DNA from: Giardia intestinalis
Lineage: Eukaryota
Strand: one strand, 5' to 3'
NCBI GenBank assembly: GCA_000002435.2
Contig: CM018790.1
Length of the DNA stretch: 64,000 nucleotides
The notes beneath the pieces were generated by a model. The model did not search any database and was not told the DNA's origin. It was given only the letters and a program-made list of their open reading frames with translations. The translations under genes and the position numbers were made by a program. Below, piece after piece: positions 20,382-39,840 of the stretch. Numbering within the stretch: position 1 is the stretch's first letter; every line of letters starts with the position of its first letter.

Positions 20382-20388
20382 ATTTACT
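20382..20388 (-). promoter_or_regulatory. AGTAAAT poly(A)-signal motif overlapping the stop codon of the ankyrin/pseudokinase gene
   Basis: The + strand ATTTACT at 20382-20388 is AGTAAAT on the minus strand. The TAA within it (20384-20386) is the stop codon. Confidence 0.4.
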
Positions 20389-22600: not shown

Positions 22601-22866
22601 AGGCCCAGAATTTTACGGATTGAGATAGGGCCGACAAGCGTGAAAAAAATGTGTTGCAGCATTTGTAAAATAAAAACAGAAGATTTTAAAGGGCAGTTTA
22701 ACATTTCAATGAACTACTATTAGAAAAACCGTGCTATCTACTGGTTGTGTTCACTACTTTATGTGACAGAGGTATTTCGATAAAAGAATTTTCCCTCAGA
22801 GTCTAATTTCTTGGAAAAAAGTTGCTTTTACAGGCGTGAGATCTTTTGAAAACTGTTGAGAGCCAA

Positions 22867-23760
22867 ATGGCGTACAGCGACTGGGCTAAGAGTCAATATA
22901 TGGAGTTGAATGAACTAGGGTGCAACGGAAAGCTTTCCTTACACAGTGCGCGTGTGAGGTCGTCCGGGGACGCGGTTTCCTTCTGGCGCATCGGTATATC
23001 TGGCCTCCCCGATTCTGTACTGGATGCAATCGTCGTGGAAGTCCAGCATGTCAAGGACTATCAGCATCCAGCACTAATAAAGGTAACCAATGTGTATGCT
23101 GATGTAGACGACCTGTATGTGTACATAGAGATGGAACCTGTCAACTGCACCTTGAAGGACTATGCGAAGCAACACATCAGCGCTCAGAGTAAAGTTCCCG
23201 AGCAAGTTGTTTGGGACACGGCAAGCTCTTTATTAGAGGGTCTTTCATACCTTCACTTGCTTGAAAATCCTACCCCGTTTCTATCAACGAGCTCCTCTAG
23301 TCTGATGGATGCTACCAACAACAGTAGAAGCGTTAATATTGTTGGAGTTCACGCCAGTATCACGTCGTCAACCGTCTTAGTAACGCAGGAGGGCCATATA
23401 AAGCTCGGTGTCTTTGGGCTTTCCGCGACCCTCGATGAACTGTATTCGCTCGGATATTATGACGTCCCGCACTGCTTCCGAGCACCTGAGGTGACAAAGT
23501 ACAAGCACAGCTTAAAGAGCGACGTTTGGGCACTTGGAGCAACCCTTGTGGATATGTGCGTGGGAACGCTTTCTTCTCGTGATGACTTCCCGGTCAATCC
23601 TGGCTCATTGGAGCACCCAGATCTTTCAGACTATCTAGCGCAATATACACCAAGGCTTAGAAAGTTCCTAGGTGTGTGTCTGCGCTTCGATGTGACAAAG
23701 AGGCATCTGACTAATGGGTTGATGGACGAGCTGGCTAGTCTGAAACCGAACGGAGTGTAA
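22867..23760 (+). CDS. Kinase-like protein lacking catalytic motifs (probable NEK-type pseudokinase)
   Basis: HIKLGVFGLSA is present where DFG would be. APEV and SDVWALGATLVDM match subdomains VIII/IX. There is no Gly-rich loop or HRD motif. The ATG at 22867 is codon 8 of the track ORF (TTG at 22846). Confidence 0.5.
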   Translation: MAYSDWAKSQYMELNELGCNGKLSLHSARVRSSGDAVSFWRIGISGLPDSVLDAIVVEVQHVKDYQHPALIKVTNVYADVDDLYVYIEMEPVNCTLKDYAKQHISAQSKVPEQVVWDTASSLLEGLSYLHLLENPTPFLSTSSSSLMDATNNSRSVNIVGVHASITSSTVLVTQEGHIKLGVFGLSATLDELYSLGYYDVPHCFRAPEVTKYKHSLKSDVWALGATLVDMCVGTLSSRDDFPVNPGSLEHPDLSDYLAQYTPRLRKFLGVCLRFDVTKRHLTNGLMDELASLKPNGV

Positions 23761-25235: not shown

Positions 25236-25631
25236 TTAGGCCGGCGACCCTCTTCTAAGATCTCTGGTTCTCAGAGCATCATAGTCATAGCCTTGCAGAA
25301 GACGTGGAGGTCCTTGAAGCATTCCTATGTGCAAGGGTTCTATCATCTTGTGTATACCCACCCAGGAGTGAGCCACATTGCACGCTTCCGTAATATCATA
25401 GCCAAAGAAGGGGCGCAGAATGTCTTTTCCAGCAGGATGCCAGTCTAAATATTGCGTGATGTCGTAGACACGACCACGGTAGGTGACCCAACAGTCATCC
25501 TCTGAACGATGCTCATAAACCTGGTTTGCCGTGTAATTGGTATTGGCTGCTACATGCGCCGGGACTCCCTTAATCCGCCTGTGCTGCATGAGAAACGCCA
25601 CTCCAGATGGGCGACCATGATGTTCACTCAT
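25236..25631 (-). CDS. Cytochrome b5-like haem-binding protein (131 aa)
   Basis: HRSEDDCWVTYRGRVYDITQYLDWHPAGKDIL...GYDITEA...HS matches the cytochrome b5 fold (H...DD.W..I.G.VYD.T.FL..HPGG...L...G.DAT..F...HS), including both axial His positions. Confidence 0.7.
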   Translation of the reverse strand: MSEHHGRPSGVAFLMQHRRIKGVPAHVAANTNYTANQVYEHRSEDDCWVTYRGRVYDITQYLDWHPAGKDILRPFFGYDITEACNVAHSWVGIHKMIEPLHIGMLQGPPRLLQGYDYDALRTRDLRRGSPA

Positions 25632-25658
25632 TAAAATTATGGTGAAATTCCTGTGACT

Positions 25659-25690
25659 TTGGACGTGACCTTGGACGTGACCTTGGACGG
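25659..25690. repeat. Tandem 12-bp repeat TTGGACGTGACC x2.7, located -28 to -59 of the cytochrome b5 ATG and 3' of the DJ-1 gene
   Basis: Two perfect copies at 25659-25670 and 25671-25682, plus a partial copy TTGGACGG at 25683-25690. The minus-strand reading is GGTCACGTCCAA. Confidence 0.6.
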
Positions 25691-25703
25691 AGCCCCGTAC
25701 CTT

Positions 25704-26264
25704 CTACTTGTCAATAAGATGCAAAAGCATCCCCTTCGTTACTTCAGCATGCTTCTCTGGAGTCACAAGCAATTCCAGGGCCTTGACAGCGAAGAGAAGA
25801 GCTGTCGCTGGCCCCTGGGAAGTTAGGAACTTGCCGTCAACCACAACAGGCTCGTCGACGAATTGAGCACCGTTTGCAACTAGCCCGTCCTTCATGGCAG
25901 GATAGCAGGTTGCACGCTTGTCCTTCAAAAGACCCCATGACGCTAGGGAAGCAGAGGGGGCCGCGCATATAGCCATGACCCACTTGCCGTGCCGGCTGTG
26001 ATTCTCCGTTAAAGCCTTGATAACACCATTCGTTTGCATTTCCTTCCAGCCAGGTCCGCCAGGTAGCACAATGGCGTCATAGAGCGTGTTGCCAATCTCA
26101 GAGACCAGGGCGTCCGTGTGTACAGTGACCCCGTGAGCACCCTTTTGGACTTTCTCGGTGCCTGCAAGTGTCACAGACACTCCGCCACGACGGAGAACGT
26201 CCACCACTGTGACACACTCGATGGGCTCGAAGCCTTCGACAACGCAGACAAGTGCAGAGGGCAT
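25704..26264 (-). CDS. DJ-1/PfpI (ThiJ) family protein (186 aa)
   Basis: Class I glutamine amidotransferase-like fold with the nucleophile elbow AICAAP (DJ-1 Cys106 context AICAGP). Also VLPGGPG and the C-terminal helix typical of DJ-1. ATG at 26264. Confidence 0.8.
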   Translation of the reverse strand: MPSALVCVVEGFEPIECVTVVDVLRRGGVSVTLAGTEKVQKGAHGVTVHTDALVSEIGNTLYDAIVLPGGPGWKEMQTNGVIKALTENHSRHGKWVMAICAAPSASLASWGLLKDKRATCYPAMKDGLVANGAQFVDEPVVVDGKFLTSQGPATALLFAVKALELLVTPEKHAEVTKGMLLHLIDK

Positions 26265-27769: not shown

Positions 27770-29260
27770 AAATCCACGCCCACTTTCTTTGATTGTATTA
27801 AGGGCTCTACCCCAGGCCCTGGATCGTATGATGTCCCGGTACTGGATTTTATACAGCCATCTACCCCATCATTTAGCATAGGCTTGAAGCACCCTACTCC
27901 AAGGGATTTGACTCCGGGCCCAGGAACATACAACGTAAACCAGGGGGACGAAGCAATGCGTAAGGGCCCCAAGAACCTCACTATTGGAGTTAAGCTACCA
28001 GACCATCACATACAGGAGACTCCAGGACCAGGGACCTATGAAACCCAACGGGCTTTTGAGGTAAAGCCAAAGGCACTCTCGTTCTCCGACAGGCATGCAG
28101 ATCCTTATGAGCAAGAACGCCTAATGACGCCGAGTCCGACACGTTACAACCCGTCTTTATCCCTGAAGCAGGTTCAGGATAAGGTTTTGCCATGCACGTT
28201 CAAGTCCAGCGTGACTCCACGAGGCCCATTTGATGATCTGGCCCACACGCCAGGTCCGTCAGCATACTCTGTCAATGACAGCATGACAACACCTCGTGCA
28301 AGCAGGGCTTGTATCGGAAATAAGCAACCGGTTAGCTATGACAATCAGGTCCCTGGCCCTGGTTCATATGATAATGTTATGAAAGAGTACATAGAGATGA
28401 CGACACCATCATCTCCTGCTTTCACTCTGCACGGGAAGCTTGAACACGGCGGACCATTTGACGTTCATGCGGTGAGGGAATATGCCTCCGTAGGCCCAGG
28501 AACATACACACTGGACAAGCTCGTTAGCAACGGCGGACTTATTTTGCCCCACGCTGCCAATCTTTCTGGTAGACATCCCGATCCTCTCGAAAGGGAAAAA
28601 CAGCTTACGCCAGGCCCGGGCTCATATTTCAAGGAAGGCGCTGGCGCACAGACAACTCCGCAATACGATCCGCTGGGGACCAAGGGATGCAAATTTGGAG
28701 TACGGCCTGCAGATCTTACCTTCATCTCATCACAGTCTGGATTAGGAACACATGATAATACTGCCGTGGGTCCAGGGACTTACACACCTAGATCAGTGAC
28801 TCCGCGCACTCCTGGGGGCGTACTGAGCTTCAAGCACGCAAATCCTTTACGAACCCTTGGAGATGGGCCTGGTAAATATGATATTAGCAGCGCAGTTACC
28901 GCAACGCTTCCCTCGTCACCGCAGCCGACTATGCATAACGGTCGGGCCAACGACTTAAACAGCCCATTTACAACCCGCTTTGATTGCAGCTGCCTAGGTG
29001 GGCCTGGTACATATGCTTTGGGGGAGAAGCTTCGAGGTAGTAGGCTTCGGGGTGCGCGCGCACTGATCTCTAGCGACACTTCACGAGGGTCTTCTAGTGG
29101 TAGGGTAGGCCCATCAATTGGGATACGATATACACGGATACGGCAGCAGAATACTCCTGGGCCGGGTGAGTATGACATATCTTCAGCGCCGCGTGGACCC
29201 TCGTTCTCATTTAGATCCCGCACCCCTTTGGCGGTAGGAACAGGTGAGCCTATGAAGTAA
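27770..29260 (+). CDS. Second SHIPPO / STPGR repeat protein, in the SAME frame as the preceding one (open from 27770; first ATG 27956; track start 27884 is TTG)
   Basis: At least 10 PGPGxY repeats (STPGPGSYDV, TPGPGTYNV, TPGPGTYET, VPGPGSYDN, GPGTYTL, TPGPGSYFK, GPGTYTP, GPGKYDI, GPGTYAL, TPGPGEYDI). The frame is separated from the upstream SHIPPO ORF only by TAG (27755-27757) and TAA (27767-27769). Confidence 0.65.
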   Translation, partial: KSTPTFFDCIKGSTPGPGSYDVPVLDFIQPSTPSFSIGLKHPTPRDLTPGPGTYNVNQGDEAMRKGPKNLTIGVKLPDHHIQETPGPGTYETQRAFEVKPKALSFSDRHADPYEQERLMTPSPTRYNPSLSLKQVQDKVLPCTFKSSVTPRGPFDDLAHTPGPSAYSVNDSMTTPRASRACIGNKQPVSYDNQVPGPGSYDNVMKEYIEMTTPSSPAFTLHGKLEHGGPFDVHAVREYASVGPGTYTLDKLVSNGGLILPHAANLSGRHPDPLEREKQLTPGPGSYFKEGAGAQTTPQYDPLGTKGCKFGVRPADLTFISSQSGLGTHDNTAVGPGTYTPRSVTPRTPGGVLSFKHANPLRTLGDGPGKYDISSAVTATLPSSPQPTMHNGRANDLNSPFTTRFDCSCLGGPGTYALGEKLRGSRLRGARALISSDTSRGSSSGRVGPSIGIRYTRIRQQNTPGPGEYDISSAPRGPSFSFRSRTPLAVGTGEPMK

Positions 29261-29278
29261 TACTGCTACTCCCTTCTG

Positions 29279-32200
29279 TCAATCCTCTATCTCCATGACC
29301 CCATCATACCACTGCTTCGGTGGAAGGTTCTTGGAGTATGGGTTGCCAAATGCTATTTTCAAACCCTCAAGCTTTATTCTAACAGTCTTACTAATGGCCT
29401 TTCCGACCTGCCCAACCGATTGGTAGACGTCTATAACGTTGCAGAATTCGCTGGAGTAGAATAGCAGACTGTCTGTCAGCTCAATAAAGGCAAGCATTAA
29501 GTCATCGCGCAACGACAGGGTAGAGAGCCACTCAGCCTTCTCCGCAAACCACTTTTGGATGTCTAGTACGATATAGTTAAAAACGTTCTTGAAATACGTG
29601 CCTGCAAGCTGTTCCGACCACCCATATACACGGGCAAGGCTGGTATAGAGCGAAAATGTACTTAGCGCCAGCTTCAACACCTCAGTACGCAGAAGAGCGC
29701 TTCTCTCTGGCCTTTTTATATAATCTTTTCCGACAGCAGGAGCTCCCGCAGCTTGCTCCAAACTGGCCACTTCACTTGTGTAATTTTCAGGGAGGACTCC
29801 GTAGATGTTCCCTCCAACAATTACATAATCCTTGAACACCTTGCAGGTAAATGCCAGGAGATTGCAACCTGCAAACACCTCATTAGTGAGAAGGTGCAAG
29901 TGGTCCTTGAGGGCTAGGCGCTTCTGCTGAATGAAGAAGGCATCGAGGGGCTTTGCAGGGGGGTCCGAGAGGGCCTTGATGTGAGCAGTCACGATGCTGT
30001 CGAGGGTCATGGTTGCATTAACGAGAATGTTAAAGACACGCAAAAAAGCATAAATATCGTCGCCTTCCACCTTGATTTCAAAGGAGTCCGGATTGATGAC
30101 CTTTGGAAAGACCTTCTCCAGCGTATATGTGCACCCGCAGTTAGCAACAAAGATCTGCCACATGCGCTCGTCACTCACTGCATTGCTTATTCCGTCAATT
30201 ATCAGGTCTGTATGTATGTTCCCATGTATATAGGACTGCAGGAAGTACTTTCGAAGTTCTGGATTCAGCGACAGCTTCTTGGTACGGAGGGCATTGACAA
30301 CTATCGTGAGAGCAACCTCGTGATATTGTGAGCTATTAAATAAGCAGAGAAGCATTGACTGGGAGTTGATCAATCGGTGGTAGCTTCCAACAATGGCCTC
30401 CGTAAAGAGAGCAATCTCGTCAGACCTCACCATTTCGCCCATAAATAGGCCAACTTCCTGTATGTCCCTAGTGATCTTTACAAAAATGGGCTCTGGTGCC
30501 GCAGACTGCATCTGGGTGGGGTCTATGATTTTGCCATCTTCCTGAGGTTTGACAGATTCGGAAACCTTGGTGCTAGGGAGCCGCAACATGAAAGACACAG
30601 ATTCCTTGATGTAAGCGTCTATCGTGGTGCATGTGTTGAAGAATCCATATGCTCTTCCACGCTCTAAACTTACAGATAGAATAGTTGCAGCGGCGTGTCG
30701 AATGTATCTGAAGAACTCAATTGCATAGTTAAATAACTGTAAGTTGTCCTTACCGTGCACTTTTGCCAACTCTGTGCTCCCCTCTGGTATCTCATTAAAG
30801 AGAGAAAAGTTATGTGTGTCTTTTAGAAGATTCATAATTGCAAATGTAAGCCCCTTTACCTTACGAGTGGTGTCAGAAATGTAGAATAAGTGATCGCGAA
30901 CGAGGTGATGCGCTGGATGGTTAAGCACGCAAGCGGTGATGCCTAGAAGTAACTTGGACATTTGTATGTATTCGGGGTTAAGCTGAAAGAACGAAGGGCT
31001 TCCCTTCTTGTCAGCAGTTGTGATTTGCTGTTGGAGCATGGCCTGGTCGATTCCCTCTATCCGTATCAGTTTCGTCTCACTCTCTTGTGCTGTGGCTGCA
31101 CCCTGTGCGGCATCAGCACCTTTGGCATCAGAAGACGGTCTCTCCGAGACTTGCTTTTGTGATTGGTGAAGGTTGGTCAGCATAGCTGTTTCATAGAGCT
31201 CTCGGGGCGGTACTGTATTAAAAGCGGTGTTGGCAAGAGCAAACAAGCAAGACTCCAGATTGAGCACCATGCGGCGGCTCAAGTAGAACGGCACGTGAGG
31301 CTTTGTATATGACTGGTAAAACTCATCGAGCACCTGGAGCGAGGGAATAGACTTGAAGCTGTTCCTGATGTTTATGCTATTTCCCTGTAGCATGTTCGCC
31401 TTCAAGACCTGGGCACAGATGTCGAGATAGACGTGAATGGCCCCTGACAGAAGTGTAAACGCGTTTATGTATGCTGCACGGAACAAGATCTCTCTTTTTT
31501 CCTTGGTTCTTATCGTCTTAAGCCGGGTCCTAGAGGCCTCTAAGACAGACTCGAGCTTGCTCTGGGGATAGTCAGTTATGGAAAGAGTAGACATGATATG
31601 GATGTCCAGATTCTTCACCTTTGTGAGCCGCGCTTGTAATTCTCGTATGTTTTGTCCGGGGAGGCGATTAAGGTAGTATTTGTCGATTGCGTTGGAGCGG
31701 TCTCCCTCTGCCTCCATGCCCATGGATATAATAGAGGTGTAGTCGCTCAGCAGCGAAGGTGCATCATTGACTATCCGACTGCAATCTACTATAGTATTTT
31801 GGACAACTCTACGCAAGTCAATCTTAGGTTCAGAAGATGACTCCGTTAATATGCGATAAAAATTGTGATTGGTTGCAGTGGACGGGTTCTTGAGTACATT
31901 AAACGTATTGAAATCGAAAAAGAATAGCAGAGCTAAGGCTAGGCATAGATACGGCTTCAAAATAGTTGCCTCAGAGTTAATGTAGAAGAACAGGAACGTC
32001 TTGTAGTGTGAGTAAAGAAATGGAAGCCCCCTATAGTCCTTCGGCTTGCTCCAGTGGGCCTCGAAGGCCTTATCTGTCCCTCTAAAGAAAGAGTAAGGCC
32101 GAAGCTGCTCGACAGCGAACGCTTGGCGATATTCTTCAGTGAGCCTGTCCCTCCTAACCGGTTGCTCCTCAAGGATATGCTTGTCCTTGTCTGTGGATAT

Positions 32201-34903
32201 GGCCCCGGAAACTCCCAGTTCTAATACATTGAAGTAATCCATCATGACTTCACCAAAGCTGAGTACAATGAAACAGCTCAAGATCTGCTTATACATTTCC
32301 AAATTTTTGCTCACGAAAGTAAAGTCTAAGTGTGTGAGAATGGTCTTGATGGATCCGATCATGAGAGGAAGAAAATCTGGGGTAATGGCCGATGAAAGAG
32401 CAGAGACAATGATCCGTAGAGACTCGTTGTGAAGACCGATTACTACGTTACTGCAGAGGGACTTTACGGGCAGGTCGTATGTGTCACTTGCAATGGTTTT
32501 GTAAACAAAGGCCAGGCCTGAAACTATTCGTTCAAAGGGTACATAACTCCGTATAAGGTCCAGCTTAAAATAGTTGAAATCTGTCTCGCAGAGAACCCCA
32601 GAGGAAAGCACAGATCGCGGATGCTCTCCTGCGCCTGTGGGTTGGTCCACCCCTGGAAGGATGTTAAACGACGCACAGTAGTATGATGTGAGCATGAGAG
32701 CGAGGTTCTCTACAAACGCACAATAGAGAATGCGGGAATGGAACCTTCTGAGCAGGAATCTCTCCTCGGGGACTTTCCCTTCCTTTATCTCGATTGGCTT
32801 TGCCTCTATCTCAAGGTAAGGGAGGGCTTCCAGGGTCAGAAGATTGTAAATGTCTATTCCATAGAGGATTTTGGAGATATCACCGAGGACACTGTTGAGC
32901 AGATTGTGCTTTAATAGGACGAGATAGATCTGGAGAAGGAGCGCCAGCGTCGCCACAGAGATGGTAAACACCTTCTTTGATTGCCCATCTGGTTTGTGCA
33001 GCAGGGCATTGAGCAGGTTCTGCAGGGGCTCAGACTTCTTTCGTGGATTCCCTACGTCGTCGATCCAGACCTGAAGCACCGCAAGCTCTACAGTTGTGGA
33101 AGCAGTGGATCCCACGCCGGATGCTCCTGCAGAACCAACAATATGGGGGTTAAAGAAAAAGTGGTAGTAGAAGAGAGTAAGTGCAGCCGACGCCCTATCC
33201 AAGTCGTTCCTTCGGTTCATCAGGCCATAGCCGACCCGCGAATCAAAGTATGCATCTCCCAGGTGTGAATTGAGAGCCGAGAGAAAGGCGTGGACTAAAA
33301 ACGAATGAAAAACAGGAGCTCCCTCTGTTAAAATAGAAAAATCCCTTGTGGCAAGTGCAAACTCAGTCAATTTCAATCCTGTCCTACTGTCTTGATAGAG
33401 AAATTTCTCTAAAACTCCTATGTTTGCCAGGATGTCCTTATTGAAGTCTGTCTTTACGATCATTAACAAGGCTCCAGGTCTTTTTGAGAAATAGGAAGCG
33501 CGGCAGAGGCGCGCTAATGCCTTGTGATATGTGGAAACATAGGACTTGAAGGTGTCCAGGCCTTCAAATGGAACGGCGACATTGACCTTAGCTAGAGAAT
33601 GGATTGTCGGGTCCTGCATGATGCAAGTACTATACAAAAGCCCTGTGGTCTTAATGGATATGTTAGCGACTCCCTCATTGTGGTCCGACATGCCAAACTC
33701 GTCTCCTTCTGTTTGCGTCCTTGCAGTATCGCCGGGACCCAGTTCATCGTTGGCAGAGACTGGTGCACTGGCAGGTAGTTTCCTCTGCTCCTTCAGACGC
33801 TCCTCAAACCGTTCTATGTTGGCTAAAAGATGCTTAGGACAAGTGATTTTTCCATCAGATTGAATGGTGATAGCGTGATATACATCTGGATAAGTGTTGT
33901 TTGATATGAAAAGACGCATGGACGTGAGAAACTGCGGTTCGAGTGGTAGCTTGATTCGCTCCTTGATCTTGGCATTGAAGAAGGGGTGAGAAGCTAATTC
34001 ATTCCAAGTGATCCTCTTGAATGGGAAGGGTTGTAGCAGCTTGTAGAGCAAGTCCTTAAAATTAGCGCTTAAGGGGAAGCCTCGATAACTAGATGGGATG
34101 AGGTTGTTGAACAGATGCTCCTCGCCGTGTTGAATGACTCGAAAAGCGTACCTTTGGTAGTCACGTATTCGAACTGTTATGCGTGTTTGTTGCTTGTCTG
34201 GGCTGTCCTCAGAGTCACTGTCATTATACACCAGGTTCTCGGCAGAAGACTTGTCCATAAACTGTTCAAACGGGTAACGCCGAAATAGTATCCTATAGAG
34301 CAGGCAACCAAAGGAGAACAGGTCTGAAGAGATACTATGAGAGCCGTCGGGCAGAAGGGTTTCAGGAGCTTTGTGGAGATAACCATTGGACTTAACGTGC
34401 TTATCAATAACCTCGATGGTGAGAGGCTGATGTTTGACAATTTGGCTTGCAAACTCGAAGTCGGCCAGCTTTATGTTACCGTCAATATCAACAAGGATGT
34501 TACTACCCAGCAGTTCATTGAATGTTATGCCCTTTAAGTGAAGAAAATGAAGGGCGTCTCGGATGTCACTTGCAAACGACTCCACAGAGACCTCGGGCCA
34601 GTAGTGATACTCTCTGCTCAGTAGAGACTCTAAAGACCCGCCCTCGCAGAGCTCCGTTATTAGCCAGATTTCGTCGTTGCTCTGGTACCACGATATGAAG
34701 CGTAGAATATTTGGGTGGACATTCGAGCTGAGGAATGTTGCTTCGACTTGAACCTTCGTCTTTAGCGCCTGAATGCGTGTAGGAGTTTGCTTTGCAGCCA
34801 CATATTCTAGAGATTGCGGCTGCCGGGCACGATAGATAATTGATCCGCTATTCTTTCCTCGGCCAATCTCCTCATAGGTCTTGAACTTGCTGGCGGAGTT
34901 CAT
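29279..34903 (-). CDS. ULK4: ULK4-like pseudokinase: N-terminal degenerate kinase domain plus about 1550 aa helical-repeat region
   Basis: Matches between this protein's N-terminus and human ULK4:
- FKTYEEIGRGKNSGSIIYRAR ~ FILYEEIGRGSKTVVYKGR
- HPNILRFISWYQSNDEIWLITELCEGGSL ~ [29 protein letters not shown]
- SISSDLFSFGCLLYRILFRRYPF ~ [23 protein letters not shown]
- KRITWNELASHPFF ~ KRLTWTRLLQHSFW
The catalytic loop reads HLKGITFNELLGSN, not HRDLKPEN. DFG is replaced by DFE. Confidence 0.7.
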   Translation of the reverse strand: MNSASKFKTYEEIGRGKNSGSIIYRARQPQSLEYVAAKQTPTRIQALKTKVQVEATFLSSNVHPNILRFISWYQSNDEIWLITELCEGGSLESLLSREYHYWPEVSVESFASDIRDALHFLHLKGITFNELLGSNILVDIDGNIKLADFEFASQIVKHQPLTIEVIDKHVKSNGYLHKAPETLLPDGSHSISSDLFSFGCLLYRILFRRYPFEQFMDKSSAENLVYNDSDSEDSPDKQQTRITVRIRDYQRYAFRVIQHGEEHLFNNLIPSSYRGFPLSANFKDLLYKLLQPFPFKRITWNELASHPFFNAKIKERIKLPLEPQFLTSMRLFISNNTYPDVYHAITIQSDGKITCPKHLLANIERFEERLKEQRKLPASAPVSANDELGPGDTARTQTEGDEFGMSDHNEGVANISIKTTGLLYSTCIMQDPTIHSLAKVNVAVPFEGLDTFKSYVSTYHKALARLCRASYFSKRPGALLMIVKTDFNKDILANIGVLEKFLYQDSRTGLKLTEFALATRDFSILTEGAPVFHSFLVHAFLSALNSHLGDAYFDSRVGYGLMNRRNDLDRASAALTLFYYHFFFNPHIVGSAGASGVGSTASTTVELAVLQVWIDDVGNPRKKSEPLQNLLNALLHKPDGQSKKVFTISVATLALLLQIYLVLLKHNLLNSVLGDISKILYGIDIYNLLTLEALPYLEIEAKPIEIKEGKVPEERFLLRRFHSRILYCAFVENLALMLTSYYCASFNILPGVDQPTGAGEHPRSVLSSGVLCETDFNYFKLDLIRSYVPFERIVSGLAFVYKTIASDTYDLPVKSLCSNVVIGLHNESLRIIVSALSSAITPDFLPLMIGSIKTILTHLDFTFVSKNLEMYKQILSCFIVLSFGEVMMDYFNVLELGVSGAISTDKDKHILEEQPVRRDRLTEEYRQAFAVEQLRPYSFFRGTDKAFEAHWSKPKDYRGLPFLYSHYKTFLFFYINSEATILKPYLCLALALLFFFDFNTFNVLKNPSTATNHNFYRILTESSSEPKIDLRRVVQNTIVDCSRIVNDAPSLLSDYTSIISMGMEAEGDRSNAIDKYYLNRLPGQNIRELQARLTKVKNLDIHIMSTLSITDYPQSKLESVLEASRTRLKTIRTKEKREILFRAAYINAFTLLSGAIHVYLDICAQVLKANMLQGNSINIRNSFKSIPSLQVLDEFYQSYTKPHVPFYLSRRMVLNLESCLFALANTAFNTVPPRELYETAMLTNLHQSQKQVSERPSSDAKGADAAQGAATAQESETKLIRIEGIDQAMLQQQITTADKKGSPSFFQLNPEYIQMSKLLLGITACVLNHPAHHLVRDHLFYISDTTRKVKGLTFAIMNLLKDTHNFSLFNEIPEGSTELAKVHGKDNLQLFNYAIEFFRYIRHAAATILSVSLERGRAYGFFNTCTTIDAYIKESVSFMLRLPSTKVSESVKPQEDGKIIDPTQMQSAAPEPIFVKITRDIQEVGLFMGEMVRSDEIALFTEAIVGSYHRLINSQSMLLCLFNSSQYHEVALTIVVNALRTKKLSLNPELRKYFLQSYIHGNIHTDLIIDGISNAVSDERMWQIFVANCGCTYTLEKVFPKVINPDSFEIKVEGDDIYAFLRVFNILVNATMTLDSIVTAHIKALSDPPAKPLDAFFIQQKRLALKDHLHLLTNEVFAGCNLLAFTCKVFKDYVIVGGNIYGVLPENYTSEVASLEQAAGAPAVGKDYIKRPERSALLRTEVLKLALSTFSLYTSLARVYGWSEQLAGTYFKNVFNYIVLDIQKWFAEKAEWLSTLSLRDDLMLAFIELTDSLLFYSSEFCNVIDVYQSVGQVGKAISKTVRIKLEGLKIAFGNPYSKNLPPKQWYDGVMEIED

Positions 34904-34938
34904 GGCGGGGCGCCGATTAAATTATTGAACCAGAATTG

Positions 34939-35853
34939 CTAGAATTTACCTGCTGCCACGGACAGGCCTGCTAAGAGATCGCTTAGCACCGGGTCCTCGG
35001 CCTTTGTCTTTGCCGTCACGTAGCCGAAGTAGTCACTCAGGCTGCTGATCTGCTCTTCGTCCTGCGGTCCGTCCCCGTCCTGAACGTTGGTCTTGAAGGC
35101 GCCCATCTGCACCTTCAGCGCCTCGTCCGGAGAGGACGACTGGCATATCATGGTGTGGGAATCCATCCCAGGCGGGATGCGCAGTATCGCTTCGTCTTCG
35201 TCGATCGTGAAGTCGAAGGCGTGCGCACCCCCCTTGGTATGTCCCAGCAAGTGTCTCGCAATGGGGCCCGTGTCGTCTGTGCCGGCTGCAGAGTAGACGG
35301 TTGTTCTTTGGGGGCACGCAGAGCCATCGGAGGACGGAAAGAGCTTGGCGTTGGCGACCAGGGCCAGGGCCCGAACGCACCGGAGGGCGATGCTGCGGCT
35401 CACAGGGTTTGTGTTCTGCAGCTGGGTGCTGTCTGTCAGCAGGATGGTGCAGCTGGAGAAGCGCTGGCGCTTGCTAAGCGCGTAGACGGCATCCAGCCAG
35501 GCCTTCGTCTCCGTGACGCACAGCGAAACCGAGGCGGCAGAAATTAAAAGAACGAGATGCAGCTGCTCAGGGTCAGCGAAGAAGTCAAGGTCGTGCAACT
35601 TGTCCTTCAGAAGCCCAGAGGAACCCAAAATAAAACAGGAAACAGGAGCTGCATCGTCTGCACCGCGGTCAGACGAGACCAGTAAAGTGGTGTATTTTGA
35701 TGTGCCAGGGGGGATTATAACCTGCTTTCCGAGCAGCCGCGTGGCAAGCGCGCCCTTGTATGCGTCCCCATTGCCCAGGAGTACAAATGTGGCCGGCGAG
35801 CCTTTCGCATCGCAGCCCTCCGTGAAGGGCGCAAGAATGTCCTGGATGCTCAT
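34939..35853 (-). CDS. Possible dynein light intermediate chain-like protein (DLIC/D2LIC family) with degenerate P-loop; 304 aa from first ATG
   Basis: TFVLLGNGDAYKGALATRLLG resembles a degraded GxxGxGKT P-loop as in F..GSKNGGKTTIILRCL. VSCFILGSSGLLKDKLHDLDFFADPEQLHLVLLISAAS resembles D2LIC [38 protein letters not shown]. The gene is GC-rich. Track ORF to 35883 starts on a non-ATG. Confidence 0.35.
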   Translation of the reverse strand: MSIQDILAPFTEGCDAKGSPATFVLLGNGDAYKGALATRLLGKQVIIPPGTSKYTTLLVSSDRGADDAAPVSCFILGSSGLLKDKLHDLDFFADPEQLHLVLLISAASVSLCVTETKAWLDAVYALSKRQRFSSCTILLTDSTQLQNTNPVSRSIALRCVRALALVANAKLFPSSDGSACPQRTTVYSAAGTDDTGPIARHLLGHTKGGAHAFDFTIDEDEAILRIPPGMDSHTMICQSSSPDEALKVQMGAFKTNVQDGDGPQDEEQISSLSDYFGYVTAKTKAEDPVLSDLLAGLSVAAGKF

Positions 35854-36247
35854 TTTAATTCTTTGCCAGATCTCCCAAGCCACCTCCCTGCTTCCTGTGG
35901 CTTATCAAAAGTGCAGAGTCTGTTGCCTGGGGGTCGCGCTTCGCTGCACAGAAGCTTACATTGGCACCAGACGGCTCCGTGCACTCAGATTGATGGACAG
36001 AAGGGGTCAGTTCGTAAGATCTGTCTCACTAAGGGCGCTTTGGTTGCAATCCCACGACTTCAGAGGCTTCTGTGCTGATTGGGATTGGGCAATGATGCGC
36101 GAGGAAAAGCGTTCGACCAGGAGGTAGCAAGGCTGAGGCTCACCGAATCCATGATTGTTATCTACCCACAGATTCTGCGAAAATTGGACCCGATACAGTA
36201 ATTGTTAGTTTGGCGTAATAGAAAGCGTGAATCTAATTGCGCATGAC

Positions 36248-37077
36248 ATGGTCAGTGAGAGTCCCACTCGTGCTGCAGAGAGCGCTGGCAGTGGCTCCGA
36301 TAGCATCCCCATGTTCAGTCCCGAAGAGCTGTATCGGCGTGAAGGCGAGCTGCTAGGCAAGGGGCCTTCGGAGTCGTCATGTACGAGCTTGCTACTATGA
36401 ATTTGCCGAGCTTTTCACACTTTGGGAGCCAGAGGACGCGAAAGCAGTCTTTGACAATGAGTGGAGGCCTGATTTGGACACCATCACAGATGAATTCGTA
36501 AGAACTGTCATCGAGAAGATATTATCCTGGACTCGGCAGAGCAGCCCACAGCCAGGGAGTTTCATAGTCTGCTCCGGGAGCTGAACGCTTCAGAAGTAGG
36601 GATCAGGCTTCACATCAGTGCGTTGGAGAGCATCCTGGAAGATGCCAATGCTAGGGACGATCCCCTCGAGAAGGCCCTTCAAGCCGAGTCAGCTGAGAAC
36701 AAAGGCCTGAAGGAGACTATCTCTGCTCAGACTGTCGAGCTGGACTTTCCAAAGAAGGTCTCAGGAAGCTGGCCGCTCGAGACTCATCGTGGATCCCGCT
36801 CATACGGGGTGCCGAAAGAGGTGACGTAGAGGCTGTTAAAGCAATTTCTCCTCTTCACATGGGAAGGACAGCAAGATATGTCAAAACAGACAGATGGAGT
36901 GTGCATGGAGGAACAGCACTGATGATAGCAGCACGAGGACATGCAGAAGTGGTGAGGCTATTAGTGAAACACGAGAGTGGCATGAAGGATAGATATAACT
37001 GGACTCCCCTTAATCATGCAAAGTCACGGAATAACCGGGAGTGTATGGAGCTTCTTCGAGGTGACCAACCGTTCTGA
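36248..37077 (+). pseudogene. Decayed NEK-kinase / coiled-coil / ankyrin-repeat gene remnant (frameshifted, internally deleted)
   Basis: Recognisable pieces sit in three different frames, broken by stops:
- Kinase start YRREGELLGKG followed directly by (G)AFGVVMYELATMNLPSF. Subdomain I is fused to subdomain IX-like sequence.
- Kinase C-lobe-like DEFVRTVIEKILSWTRQSSPQP.
- Coiled coil LESILEDANARDDPLEKALQAESAENKGLKETISAQTVEL.
- Ankyrin repeats IPLIRGAERGDVEAVKAI and GGTALMIAARGHAEVVRLLVKHE...WTPLNHA. Confidence 0.45.
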
Positions 37078-37499
37078 AGATCTCCGCTGCATCTTAATGA
37101 ATTTAGTGATCCCAACTTCTAACAGAACTAAGCAATCCAGTAGGCCCCCGGTGCTAGCCCAATCAATAGTACGTCCCTCTCTAAATCCTTCGGTGGACAT
37201 AGCGATCAGGGGCCCAGCCCCACCTGCACATAGAGCCTTGCATAATGTAGGAGATGCAAGATACTGTCGCTAACAGCATGGCTGTGCGATCGGCAGGCAG
37301 AAAGCGAGTGAAGGACCTCGTTGACAGTGGCACCCTGGATCAAGTGCACTCGCTGGAGTTGGCGATTCACACATAGAATGGAGTCCCCATGTGGCTGTCC
37401 TGACCTCGTTCTGGTCTAGATGATGAAGTACGACCCTTACTGTACGTAGCCTTTCACACTGACAACTGCTGACTTGTAGACCCCTACTGGTATAAAAGC

Positions 37500-39044
37500 A
37501 TGGCAACAGCCCTCATCTTAGCAGGAGGGAAGGGGACACGTCTCAGACCAATGACAGACAGCACGCCCAAGCCGCTGCTGCGAACCCCACACCGGACAAT
37601 CCTCGAAACCCAGATCCAGAGCCTCTACGAGCACGGTGTGCGCTCTGTGTATGTCCTCATTCATCAGTCTCAGCATGACTCTTACAAGGCGTGCGTTGAC
37701 AGCCTTGATGTAAGGCACCACATGCAGATAGTCTTGGTTACAGAGCACGAGTGGTTGGGAACAGCAGGCGCTGTTGTTAGCTGTTTGTGGGCCTACCCGG
37801 AGCTTTCCAAGCTGACACACATCCTCATCATGAACGGAGACGTTGTCTGCCGCTATCCCTTCTCATCGTTGATCTCTACCTACAAGTCGCAGAACTGCGC
37901 GTGCCTACTAACACACTTCTCCACTCGGGACCCATCGCAGTATGGGCTGCTGAGGCTGACCAGAGAAAACGGGCCGTCGGCTCTGTCACTGTCTGAATTA
38001 TCAGATCGGCCCTCACTGCCTTCCTCCTCCGCGGGCTCTGAGCTGAGCGAGTCCTTATCCGCTGGAGACGGGCTGCTATCGTCCTTCGGCCCTGCTAGCT
38101 CTGCCGAATCAGCAGACATCCTATTCGAAGATCCCACCGACGCCAGCGCCGAGAGTGACAGCGTGGCATCGGTCTCCTCAGCGGTCGATGCACGCCAAGT
38201 AATGAGGATAAGAGATTATAACCGAATCCACCGCGGTGGAGCAAGCATCGCAAGGGTCTCCACGCCACACCTCCCCAGCTCTCCGGCGGGACTGCGGGTC
38301 AACAGCCGTCGAAGCGATAGAACTAGGAGCAGGTCCAGAGATAGGCCCAGAGGGGGTGTGCAGATGGGATCCCTGGGACCGCAGCTGGACTTGTCGTACG
38401 GGCAGATATCTCTGGTGGACTGCTCAAACAGACACTTGCGCTCCCTCCCCACTCAGACCGCCTCCAGAACCTCCACACGATCATCCTCGGGCGCCACCAT
38501 CCGTCTGGGCAGGGTGTCAGCGTTCATAGAAAAGCCTTGTTTTGTGGCAGTGGAGAGCCAGCAGGACAGAGCTGGCCACGGAGTCTCGTATGCAAATGCC
38601 GGGATCTATGTCATCAACCCCGCTCTCCTGCTGGCGTTCCCGGTCCCCTGCTCTATGGAGCAGGGAGTCTTTCCCATCCTTCTGTCACGGAAGCTGGACG
38701 TGCTGTCGTTCTACATCGGCACGGAGAAGACGTGGAGTGACATGGGGACCGTCGCGGGATTTATAAGGGGGTGTCAGCTGTTGAACGGAGTCCCGGCGTT
38801 TGACCAGGGCTCAAACTCATCCACACGGCTGGGAAGTGAGGCACACAAGTCTATGTCAAAGAATGGCCTTCGGGGCAATGTCACAGGCGACGATGTGCGT
38901 ATCGCGAGGGGGGCGCACGTCGCCAACTGCGTAATATACGACAATACAGTCGTGCCGCCCGGAGTGCATCTGGAGGGATGCATTGTTTGTTCAGGGGAAG
39001 GGCTGGCGCAGGGCAAGCACTATTACAACAAAATCATACCTTAG
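37500..39044 (+). CDS. Sugar-1-phosphate nucleotidyltransferase (GDP-mannose pyrophosphorylase-like, NTP_transferase + left-handed beta-helix) with about 180-aa Ser/Arg-rich insertion
   Basis: N-terminal ALILAGGKGTRLRPMTDSTPKPLL (compare [24 protein letters not shown]). GTAGAV and a VSAFIEKP...NAGIYVINPALL...FPILLSRKLDVLSFYIGTEKTWSDMGT core. C-terminal LbH repeats VRIARGAHVANCVIYDNTVVPPGVHLEGCIV. Residues 150-340 are low-complexity S/A/R-rich, including RSDRTRSRSRDRPRGG. The ATG at 37500 is directly preceded by TATAAAAG. Confidence 0.7.
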   Translation: MATALILAGGKGTRLRPMTDSTPKPLLRTPHRTILETQIQSLYEHGVRSVYVLIHQSQHDSYKACVDSLDVRHHMQIVLVTEHEWLGTAGAVVSCLWAYPELSKLTHILIMNGDVVCRYPFSSLISTYKSQNCACLLTHFSTRDPSQYGLLRLTRENGPSALSLSELSDRPSLPSSSAGSELSESLSAGDGLLSSFGPASSAESADILFEDPTDASAESDSVASVSSAVDARQVMRIRDYNRIHRGGASIARVSTPHLPSSPAGLRVNSRRSDRTRSRSRDRPRGGVQMGSLGPQLDLSYGQISLVDCSNRHLRSLPTQTASRTSTRSSSGATIRLGRVSAFIEKPCFVAVESQQDRAGHGVSYANAGIYVINPALLLAFPVPCSMEQGVFPILLSRKLDVLSFYIGTEKTWSDMGTVAGFIRGCQLLNGVPAFDQGSNSSTRLGSEAHKSMSKNGLRGNVTGDDVRIARGAHVANCVIYDNTVVPPGVHLEGCIVCSGEGLAQGKHYYNKIIP

Positions 39045-39840
39045 GCGCACTCGAGAGCGTCAGTTTCGTTCGTATCCTCGTTAGGTGAGTATCTACGACA
39101 TTGAAGATATCTTCCGCCACCTGCTCGGCCGTGGTCTCGACGAATGGGCAGTCAATGCCACCCTTTTCCCAGAGGCCGGACAAAAAGTTGCCAGGGTATA
39201 TTTCCTCTACGTGTGCATGCGGTAAGTCATGTCGAGCACAGTCCACCAGGCCACGGAGAGCAAACTTGGCCACACAGTACGGGCAGCAGTCGACGGTTCC
39301 TTCCCAACTAAGGGGATCAGAGCCGACGGCCACATAACAGCAGTACCTGTTCCCCGAAAGAGTGGGGAGATACCGGAGGCTTTGCTGCATAGGCAGGACG
39401 TGCGCAGAAATGGCATCCAGTATGTCCTGCGGTGTCGTCTCCCCCACAGAGCGGCATGCAAGGGCTCCTGTACAGGTGACAACAGCAATGAGAATGCCCT
39501 TGCCACGCTGCTGTGCAGGTGATGGACGGCTGGTGCCTGCATACCATGCCTCGGCCTCGTCCAGGCTTGAGCACGCAATACCCAACTCACCCAGTAAACG
39601 CTCATAGGTAAGCCAGAACTGGTCTGCAGACGGGTCTCCACGTATGATGCGCAGCCTCTTGTAGCAGGAAGCAGTGGAGGCGGGGGCCCTTTCCGCATCT
39701 TCAAGAAGCGCATCCAAAGACCCGGTATCCGCGCGATCGCGCACCTGTGCATGCACAGAGAACCCTTCGAGGAGAAGCTTGCAGGTTACAGCAACGCCCA
39801 GGGTACCGTTGGCGCCCAGGACCAGAACAAATAGAGACAT
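39034..39840 (-). CDS. Short-chain dehydrogenase/reductase-type NAD(P)-binding oxidoreductase (268 aa)
   Basis: N-terminal Rossmann motif VLVLGANGTLGVAV. Active-site YxxxK as YCVAKFALRGL. The 3' end overlaps the convergent nucleotidyltransferase gene by 11 nt. The ATG at 39840 is 32 nt from the ATG of the divergent giant gene. Confidence 0.55.
   Translation of the reverse strand: MSLFVLVLGANGTLGVAVTCKLLLEGFSVHAQVRDRADTGSLDALLEDAERAPASTASCYKRLRIIRGDPSADQFWLTYERLLGELGIACSSLDEAEAWYAGTSRPSPAQQRGKGILIAVVTCTGALACRSVGETTPQDILDAISAHVLPMQQSLRYLPTLSGNRYCCYVAVGSDPLSWEGTVDCCPYCVAKFALRGLVDCARHDLPHAHVEEIYPGNFLSGLWEKGGIDCPFVETTAEQVAEDIFNVVDTHLTRIRTKLTLSSAPKV

Follow-up and report, generated by a model that had tools for sequence, protein, structure and literature searches.

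What occupies the longest stretch of this DNA in which no intact open reading frame (ORF) can be read, and is it a gene still in use or the remains of one? The window, by which we mean the whole stretch of 64,000 nucleotides that was analysed, comes from Giardia intestinalis WB C6, and the proteins encoded on either side of the locus are identical to WB proteins in an exact-sequence look-up. The initial annotation had drawn attention to a 1.37-kb gap without an intact ORF, and the gap is real: when a gap is defined by the lack of any stop-free frame of at least 150 codons, positions 36128-37472 (1,345 bp) form the longest such stretch in the window, and the runner-up measures 700 bp. Its edges and its emptiness call for some adjustment. 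The left edge at 36128 is fixed by a 204-aa ORF (35513-36127) that is probably spurious; it faces the 5' end of a real 304-aa gene and extends upstream of it, and the product of this ORF was absent from the protein collection that was searched; the true gene-free interval is 35854-37499. Moreover, the gap is partly annotated, with a reference protein encoded by a 72-aa ORF inside it (Table 1). Searches of 35800-37600 against Rfam (E ≤ 1) and with a tRNA scan found no RNA gene, and the base composition of the region is unremarkable. We are highly confident that positions 36248-37077 on the plus strand are a non-functional, neutrally decaying Nek-GL4 kinase/ankyrin pseudogene of Giardia intestinalis WB (assemblage A). 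The locus is an ordinary, known feature that was catalogued in 2011 as GL50803_10686 / GK424.

How much of a kinase gene can still be recognised? All of the fragments quoted in the initial annotation are present in the three plus frames, and they fall in different frames as had been claimed. They can be placed along an intact 602-aa Nek of P15 (assemblage E), a protein with a Pkinase domain at residues 33-288 (1.4e-39) followed by ankyrin repeats that extend to about residue 555. The region upstream of the pseudogene, its start codon and its N-terminus are collinear with three P15 loci (L010, L009 and L001), and nucleotide comparison of the pseudogene with the intact Nek gives blastn E-values of 1e-51 and 1e-78. 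By blastx, the C-lobe and linker remnants (36423-36521 and 36524-36748) jointly cover residues 241-349 with E = 1e-33, and 36799-37074 matches the P15 ankyrin repeats with E = 7e-20. The ankyrin repeats lie C-terminal to the helical linker, so that the domain order is that of the P15 protein. The part of the claim that concerned the two ankyrin repeats is upheld by profile searches, in which the frame-3 fragment matches Ank_2 (7.6e-12), Ank (9.6e-10) and Ank_4 (9.4e-7). The kinase part is not recovered in this way: Pfam Pkinase (PF00069) matches neither the single kinase fragments (E ≤ 1) nor the stitched 86-aa remnant (E ≤ 0.01), because only about 75 of the 256 domain residues remain. What identifies the remnant as a kinase is therefore its homology to the P15 gene, and so to one clade of Giardia Neks. 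This homology (blastx against the P15 GL4 Nek, 1e-13, 5e-8 and 1e-33), together with the published listing as Nek-GL4, identifies the locus as a relic of the Nek-GL4 family and not as a member in the sense of a working kinase. The coiled coil that had also been proposed is plausible, given one weak GAS match (E = 0.0086) on the P15 counterpart.

Table 1 Features of the pseudogene locus (positions in the window; residues are those of the intact P15 Nek).
Feature	Position	Strand	Basis
2,472-bp (2.47-kb) duplicated block: 304-aa gene GL50803_15265 (-) and Nek pseudogene (+)	34895..37366		blastn to DH paralogous locus; Logan contigs; Manning GK426
N-terminal remnant, MVSESP...YRREGELLGKG, residues 1-39, ending in the first two Gly-loop glycines	36248..36364	+	blastx vs P15 602-aa Nek, 72% identity, E = 1e-13
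Deletion junction GGGCCTTCGG; 544 bp gone	36362..36371	+	alignment; blastn and blastx coordinates; Pkinase limits 33-288 in P15 protein
Subdomain IX remnant AFGVVMYELATMNLPSFSH, residues 221-240	36364..36420	+	blastx, 5e-8
C-lobe remnant WEPEDAKAVFDNEWRPDLDTITDEFVRTVIEKI, residues 241-273	36423..36521	+	blastx, 67% identity
End of kinase domain and helical or coiled-coil linker, residues 275-349	36524..36748	+	blastx, 68% identity
End of linker and ankyrin-repeat remnant, to premature TGA at 37075-37077	36751..37077	+	Ank_2, Ank; alignment; blastx
72-aa ORF, tail of the pseudogene; WB reference name 'Ankyrin repeat protein 1', GL50803_10686; XP_001708775.1 / KAE8302320.1	36859..37077	+	exact-sequence look-up; Manning et al. 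Additional file 1; Xu et al. 2020 naming rule
Decayed last ~32 codons and 3' region, still alignable to the C-terminal end of the 602-aa P15 gene (…ECMELLRNEMLFYEPPLRL…)	37078..37170	+	alignment; blastx
26-nt motif GGCACCCTGGATCAAGTGCACTCGCT, right end of duplicated block	37329..37354	+	alignment columns ~2085-2125

The lesions that separate these fragments were mapped base by base in a multiple alignment, relative to the P15 gene, as the initial annotation had suggested should be done with intact relatives. The largest is the 544-bp deletion, which is bounded by two 8-bp GCCTTCGG repeats that both encode 'AFG', one in the Gly-loop and the other in subdomain IX. It removes residues 40-220, including the VAIK lysine and the HRD/YRD, DFG and APE motifs, and thus takes 181 of the 256 kinase-domain residues; the loss of most of the catalytic domain and the direct joining of the Gly-loop to subdomain IX were both read correctly from the fragments. 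The joint is out of frame by one base, and the junction is identical in both DH copies. Three 1-bp deletions follow: one in the T run at 36421-36423 after the subdomain IX remnant, one at 36523/36524 after the C-lobe remnant that is common to all assemblage-A copies, and one at 36749/36750 that is found in the WB window copy and in the DH paralogue and is absent from the DH syntenic copy. Two in-frame deletions of ankyrin repeat units (168 bp at 36798/36799 and 186 bp at 36990/36991) and the premature stop complete the set of disabling lesions that distinguish this locus from an intact orthologue.

Is such an orthologue found only in P15? Here three live or nearly live copies are present, all of them in the same clade as the pseudogene: ACVC01000033 (L010, the 602-aa ORF) and ACVC01000316 (L009) are intact, and GLP15_1501 (L001) carries a single in-frame TAA. 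These Neks have a complete kinase domain (G-loop, VAIK Lys, YRD, DFG, APE) and six or more ankyrin repeats. On the left, window positions 28937-36371 are collinear with the flank of L010 (86% identity); on the right, the window from 37425 onward is collinear with the flank of L001 (85% identity). A search for an intact assemblage A or a syntenic assemblage B orthologue found none; the best relatives outside P15 are 49-56% identical, and those in GS-B lie in VSP-rich, non-syntenic regions. In a more divergent lineage of Giardia the site is without a Nek. A short assemblage-B-like contig (L014) that covers just 466 bp next to the guanylyltransferase, on its upstream side, shows no Nek trace either, but is uninformative. 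Within WB, the Nek-GL4 pseudogenes GK415, GK420 and GK421 of the MVSESP clade share the N-terminal and C-lobe sequence and are all broken by stops or frameshifts, but they keep the kinase core that is lost at the window locus and differ in their C-terminal regions. Assemblage A thus has only dead members of this clade, which is alive in assemblage E. The real sister copies of the pseudogene are on other chromosomes, and the two ORFs at 20.4-23.8 kb that had been taken for further family members are remote relatives only, their kinase domains being 25% identical and their ankyrin repeats 36% identical; local tandem turnover involving these ORFs was rejected on this 25-36% identity to the clade. 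Elsewhere in the window, an in-frame stop between 25704-26264 and 25236-25703 was suspected to mark a broken gene, and this was rejected since the two frames are abutting separate genes, DJ-1/PfpI and cytochrome b5.

A further question is whether the annotated ankyrin tail has been salvaged from the dead kinase as a functional mini-gene (72 aa here, 91-158 aa in sister copies). The ORF begins with ATG and has a significant Ank_2/Ank match, the same segment is open in every assemblage-A copy, and the two DH loci share 99.7% identity over the ankyrin segment. However, the start and the length vary among copies (51, 72, 91, 151 and 158 aa), the stop comes earlier than in the P15 gene, the repeats have lost internal sequence, and gene conversion is a better explanation for the near-identity of the DH copies. 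Between WB and DH the ankyrin segment has accumulated 10-11 non-synonymous changes against 1 synonymous change, with no sign of purifying selection, and the SAGE signal of the locus is minimal, at the floor (max%*1000 = 2.6; Manning et al. 2011, Genome Biol 12:R66). For these reasons a retained mini-gene seems very unlikely, and a small ankyrin protein made from the 72-aa ORF would likewise be unlikely, the dN/dS being 1 or more on small counts (11 vs 1). Under the rule of Xu et al. 2020, sequences that have ankyrin repeats without a kinase domain are named Ankyrin repeat protein 1 / Protein 21.1; the ORF has an Ank match and no kinase domain, and the label is a naming convention that carries no evidence of function. 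These last 72 codons would be better flagged as pseudogene in the WB reference.

For the remnant as a whole, dN/dS is about 1 (0.95-1.88, or 0.95-1.9 when rounded, on small counts of 21-29 substitutions per comparison), indicating relaxed constraint when set against 0.03-0.13 for the adjacent 304-aa gene within the same duplicated block, and nucleotide identity between WB and DH is 96.8% for the pseudogene and 99.2% for the neighbouring gene. The substitution pattern shows that the pseudogene evolves neutrally, and the original view of a dying Nek/ankyrin gene is confirmed.

A second copy of the duplicated block lies on another chromosome beside GL50803_103540 / GL50803_27813. It was compared by way of the DH paralogue and of Logan contigs carrying the neighbouring protein: blastn identity to the DH paralogous locus (L007, 6094-8564) is 97.2%, and contigs with the exact WB paralogue protein GL50803_103540 are 98-99% identical over 34895-36335; an exact look-up of the 91-aa product of the WB paralogue in the contig index gave no record. 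The paralogous pseudogene (GK426 / GL50803_27813 in WB, DHA2_150779 in DH) has the same kinase-core deletion, ankyrin deletions and premature stop within the same 2.47-kb block with the 304-aa gene, at about 96-97% identity; it has its own flanking genes, one encoding 750 aa and the other a UBP-type hydrolase, and no ORF longer than 91 aa, and the Manning translation indicates that the 1-bp deletion at 36749/36750 is missing from its WB copy. At the right end of the block, GGCACCCTGGATCAAGTGCACTCGCT is conserved on the downstream side of all assemblage A and E copies, with homology to the differing flanks switching just after it; the motif is unique in the window, where 0 chance matches are expected. 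Copies group by assemblage and not by locus (identity is 98% among the A copies and also among those of P15, and 85% across the two sets), and the deletion at 36749/36750 is distributed discordantly between loci and strains. These patterns are signs of gene conversion between the block copies. They could also be taken to favour another reading, in which the locus would be kept as a recombination or regulatory element, whether as a gene-conversion donor or acceptor or a small-RNA source for other GL4 Neks, or as a preferred site of chromosomal rearrangement. In addition, the right flanks of the Nek copies appear permuted between WB and P15, and published work reports Neks at WB/P15 synteny breaks. 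Nevertheless, gene conversion and ectopic recombination follow passively from sequence similarity and require no selected function, and the permuted P15 flanks could reflect misassembly of 454 contigs over ~2-kb near-identical repeats; when P15 synteny breaks were tested by PCR, only 70% were verified (published). We consider a selected element of this kind a slightly poorer prospect even than the salvaged mini-gene. There is an equally slim chance, on a par with that of the mini-gene, that the two ~97% identical dead copies and the three kinase-retaining sister pseudogenes are not inert and act as gene-conversion partners or as substrates of ectopic recombination, by which chromosome arms would be reshuffled from one assemblage to another, as in the apparent three-way right-flank permutation of WB and P15, or that the ankyrin ORF is expressed as a small ARP-1 protein.

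Finally, an assembly or sequencing artefact was weighed, since 1-bp indels typify 454 errors and one lies in a T run, but no support was found, and the idea that an intact Nek is made after all, through such errors or through splicing or programmed frameshifting, is almost certainly wrong: the large deletions (the 544-bp one and the two in the ankyrin repeats) recur, as do the two shared 1-bp deletions, in the old and new WB references, at both DH loci and in ENA and Logan contigs, sequencing error is therefore excluded, and the catalytic core is physically absent. Giardia is known to have only a handful of introns; their branch/acceptor motif CTRACACRCAG is not found in the region, its window-wide count equals chance expectation, and splicing as a rescue of the Nek reading was rejected on its absence.

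Returning to the pseudogene, we observe directly each of its lesions, its neutral pattern of substitution, its duplication and its live counterparts in P15; the sequence in which its history unfolded, and how recombination acted in it, are inferred. The ancestor would have been a protein of ~600 aa that began with a kinase domain of the active type, continued with a helical linker and carried some six ankyrin repeats. A recombination-type loss between the 8-bp repeats may have removed 181 codons of the catalytic core, with an extra base lost at the junction; three further 1-bp deletions, the loss of two ankyrin units by repeat-unit deletion and the premature stop would have followed. The dead gene travels together with its 304-aa neighbour as the 2.47-kb block, of which assemblage A genomes have two, and the two copies may exchange sequence via gene conversion.

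Beyond annotation hygiene the locus has little importance. It offers modest new detail in the loss of a catalytic core between two 'AFG'-encoding repeats, in a dead gene that was copied or homogenised along with a strongly constrained neighbour, and in a clade that differs in fate between two assemblages, and it could serve as a clean, small case for studies of lineage-specific Nek loss or of Giardia gene conversion. In the wider family it illustrates, in textbook fashion, the rapid birth and death of Nek-GL4 genes described by Manning et al. 2011 (Genome Biol 12:R66), who reported rampant GL4 duplication and pseudogenisation and listed 30 WB kinase pseudogenes, 29 of which are GL4. The ongoing turnover proposed in the initial annotation accords with that report, whose Additional file 1 lists this exact sequence as Nek-GL4 pseudogene GK424/GL50803_10686; the conceptual translation given there (…MVSESPTRAAESAGSGSDSIPMFSPEELYRREGELLGKGPSESS*DAKAVF…LLRGDQPF) is identical to the window frames, which establishes that the two are the same locus. 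The published table entry comes without a lesion map, an orthologue or selection evidence, and these are supplied by the present analysis: what is new here is the lesion map, the P15 orthologue, the selection evidence and the 2.47-kb duplicated block with its signs of gene conversion.

Exact matches of the encoded proteins assign the window to Giardia intestinalis WB clone C6 (ATCC 50803), on a chromosome of 1.54 Mb. The longest stretch of the window in which no frame stays free of stops for 150 codons or more, as determined by a six-frame scan, spans 36128-37472 (1,345 bp; the runner-up is 700 bp), in agreement with the large ORF-free gap described in the initial annotation. Its left limit is imposed by a 204-aa ORF at 35513-36127 (+) that is antisense to the 5' end of GL50803_15265 and to the sequence upstream of it, has no Pfam match and yields a product absent from the protein collection. 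This ORF is probably spurious rather than a gene, and for this reason the real intergenic interval is taken as 35854-37499. All kinase and ankyrin peptides quoted in the initial annotation are present in the three plus-frame translations. Profile searches upheld the ankyrin part, since the frame-3 piece matches Pfam Ank_2 (7.6e-12) and Ank (9.6e-10), but not the kinase part, as the kinase pieces have no Pkinase match either singly or stitched together. Searches of the relic's region for Giardia intron motifs, Rfam families and tRNAs were all negative.

Homology searching with the stitched conceptual protein returned a sole close relative, a "Kinase, NEK" of P15 (assemblage E); the best relatives outside P15 are 49-56% identical, those of GS-B are non-syntenic, and assemblage A yielded no intact member of this Nek clade. 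The locus of the P15 relative (L001) sits directly upstream of the P15 guanylyltransferase, and two further P15 loci, L010 and L009, were reached by way of the 304-aa gene adjacent to the relic. The L010 ORF is uninterrupted for 602 aa and starts MVSESP, and the L009 ORF, also uninterrupted, is longer still with the same N-terminus. Pkinase covers residues 33-288 of the 602-aa protein (1.4e-39) and ankyrin repeats continue to approximately residue 555; the protein looks catalytically competent because the G-loop, AVK lysine, YRDLKPAN, DFG and APE motifs are all visible in its sequence. The L001 copy (GLP15_1501) has an identical kinase domain; at 6001-7674 of that contig it forms one 558-codon frame broken by a single in-frame TAA (LEKAL*ASSAENK). 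CAA stands at this position in the WB relic and in the other P15 copies, and the TAA may be a sequencing error or, if real, a nonsense mutation that arose very recently.

Alignment of the relic to this intact kinase, as blastx against the 602-aa protein and as a five-way DNA alignment of copies, located both the deletion and the frameshifts that separate its pieces, which are listed below.

Coordinates of the Nek relic (GL50803_10686, 36248-37077), its lesions relative to the 602-aa P15 protein, and annotated neighbours
Feature	Position	Strand	Basis
ORF containing the 304-aa hypothetical protein GL50803_15265	34939-35883	-	exact-sequence look-up
P15 Nek residues 1-39	36248-36364	+	blastx, 72% identity
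Core-deletion junction GGGCCTTCGG; residues 40-220 absent	36362-36371	+	blastx and five-way alignment
Residues 221-240	36364-36420	+	blastx
1-bp deletion within T run	36421-36423	+	five-way alignment
Residues 241-273	36423-36521	+	blastx
1-bp deletion	36523/36524	+	five-way alignment
Residues 275-349	36524-36748	+	blastx, 68% identity
1-bp deletion	36749/36750	+	five-way alignment
168-bp in-frame deletion between successive ankyrin "LM" motifs	36798/36799	+	five-way alignment
"Ankyrin repeat protein 1", 72 aa, XP_001708775.1 / KAE8302320.1, inside pseudogene	36859-37077	+	exact-sequence look-up
186-bp in-frame deletion	36990/36991	+	five-way alignment
TGA stop, ~32 codons short of P15 stop	37075-37077	+	five-way alignment
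Mannose-1-phosphate guanylyltransferase (annotation), XP_001708774.1	37500-39044	+	exact-sequence look-up
GL50803_10682	39034-39840	-	exact-sequence look-up

The core deletion leaves none of the catalytic lysine, catalytic loop, DFG or APE. In P15, GCCTTCGG is present twice, once in the Gly-loop (GKG-AFG-AV) and once in subdomain IX (W-AFG-VV), and the core deletion therefore lies between these two 8-bp direct repeats, with one extra base gone at the junction to produce a frameshift. Beyond the TGA, a decayed tail is still alignable as far as ~37170.

Could these lesions be sequencing errors? Two loci of the assemblage A2 isolate DH, the syntenic L002 and the paralogous L007, share the core deletion with the relic, along with its two 5'-most 1-bp deletions, the pair of ankyrin deletions and the stop. 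The exact 72-aa product is found in both WB reference versions, and ENA and Logan assemblies contain related products. Sequencing error is excluded on these grounds. Nei-Gojobori comparisons among three copies, that of the WB window and the syntenic and paralogous ones of DH, gave dN/dS of 0.95-1.88 for the relic versus 0.03-0.13 for the 304-aa gene of the same block, with non-synonymous to synonymous changes of 16-25 to 4-5 and 1-2 to 5-10, respectively. Nucleotide identity between WB and DH is 96.8% for the relic and 99.2% for the 304-aa gene. The annotated 72-aa ankyrin ORF shows no sign of constraint, as WB and DH differ there by 10-11 non-synonymous changes and 1 synonymous one, although these counts are small. 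Its label is explained by Xu et al. 2020, in which every ankyrin-only ORF was named "ankyrin repeat protein 1".

The relic belongs to a larger duplicated unit. Positions 34895-37366 (2,472 bp), whose ends lie just past the stop of GL50803_15265 and ~290 bp beyond that of the pseudogene, are 97.2% identical to 6094-8564 of L007. Identity to Logan contigs that encode GL50803_103540, the WB paralogue, is 98-99% over the whole extent that these cover. This second locus lies on a different WB chromosome (1,485,438 bp; that of the window is 1,539,535 bp) between unlike flanks, a 750-aa gene and a UBP hydrolase. A strongly constrained gene, GL50803_15265, and a dead Nek are duplicated across two chromosomes as a single 2.47-kb block. 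Identity between copies is ~98% inside assemblage A and likewise ~98% inside P15, falling to ~85% across assemblages, despite distinct left flanks that are orthologous across assemblages, and this pattern carries the signature of gene conversion, or concerted evolution, between copies. Both the WB window copy and the DH paralogue carry the 1-bp deletion at 36749/36750; the DH syntenic copy lacks it, as does the WB paralogue GK426 (GL50803_27813), going by the translation listed in Manning et al. 2011. This distribution does not follow locus orthology and suggests that the two blocks have traded sequence by gene conversion or reciprocal exchange. The DH ankyrin segment is 99.7% identical across its two loci.

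Positions 28937-36371 are collinear with L010 (86% identity) and those from 37425 onward with L001 (85%), such that P15 homology changes contig at 37366-37425, from an L010-type order (1873aa-305aa-Nek-UBP) to an L001-type order (1811aa-Nek-Man1P-GT). The right flanks of the three P15 copies are permuted relative to WB and DH. The switch falls directly 3' of a 26-nt motif, GGCACCCTGGATCAAGTGCACTCGCT (37329-37354), that is unique in the window and kept 3' of each of the five copies aligned (assemblages A and E); it may be no more than the boundary of the ancestral duplication unit. In a contig of a more divergent Giardia lineage (L013, Logan ERR3333379; 74.6% nucleotide identity across 7.4 kb), a 1871-aa gene, the 304-aa gene, a 526-bp AT-rich spacer (7475-8000) and the guanylyltransferase occur in succession, with no trace of a Nek remnant in the spacer. 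On this evidence the WB flanks are ancestral, and the Nek was either inserted at this site on the branch that gave rise to assemblages A and E or cleanly lost in that of L013. For the P15 arrangement, one reading is a derived state produced when Nek copies exchanged ectopically, and the other is misassembly of 454 data; the genome paper on P15 places Neks at synteny breaks, and PCR verified only 70% of the breaks tested.

Separately, a ~30-nt element, CACTGACAACTGCTGACTTGTAGACCCCTA (~37458-37487), precedes the guanylyltransferase ATG by 15-45 nt and is conserved in P15 as well as in two Giardia lineages that are far more divergent (L014 and L013), with proteins just 55-65% identical. It includes CTGTAG, the reverse complement of CTACAG, which resembles a Giardia Myb2-type site, and it is a possible promoter element.

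The two nearby family members proposed at 20.4-23.8 kb do contain the expected domains, ankyrin in the ORF at 20384-22600 (-) and Pkinase in that at 22846-23760 (+). However, they are only 25-36% identical to the relic's clade, and on this identity they are assigned to the broad Nek/21.1 superfamily and not regarded as recent siblings. Elsewhere in the window, a DJ-1/PfpI gene at 25704-26264 (-) is followed, in the same frame past its stop, by a cytochrome b5 open frame at 25236-25703 (-); a broken gene at 25236-26264 (-) was considered and rejected, as the separate domains represent two abutting genes.

The reading of the gap as a dying Nek/ankyrin gene is right, given the lesions relative to P15, the relaxed dN/dS and its cataloguing as Nek-GL4 pseudogene GK424. 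The feature is already known, in a family known for such turnover; what is added here is the lesion map together with evidence that the relic evolves neutrally and that copies undergo gene conversion, and we suggest that the reference annotation mark GL50803_10686 as a pseudogene. In Manning et al. 2011, 30 WB predictions that were fragmentary were lengthened into kinase pseudogenes, 29 belonging to Nek-GL4, and the authors described "rampant gene duplication and pseudogenization" in this family. An entry in their Additional file 1 reads G108 / GL50803_10686 / GK424 / Nek-GL4 / Pseudogene; the conceptual sequence listed there is identical to the frames of the window, and its SAGE maximum of 2.6 (max% x 1000) is at the low end among the table rows examined. 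Within the same listed entries, GK426 is a paralogue of the window's pseudogene, and GK415, GK420 and GK421 share its MVSESP N-terminus and contain stops but, unlike the relic, keep the kinase core.
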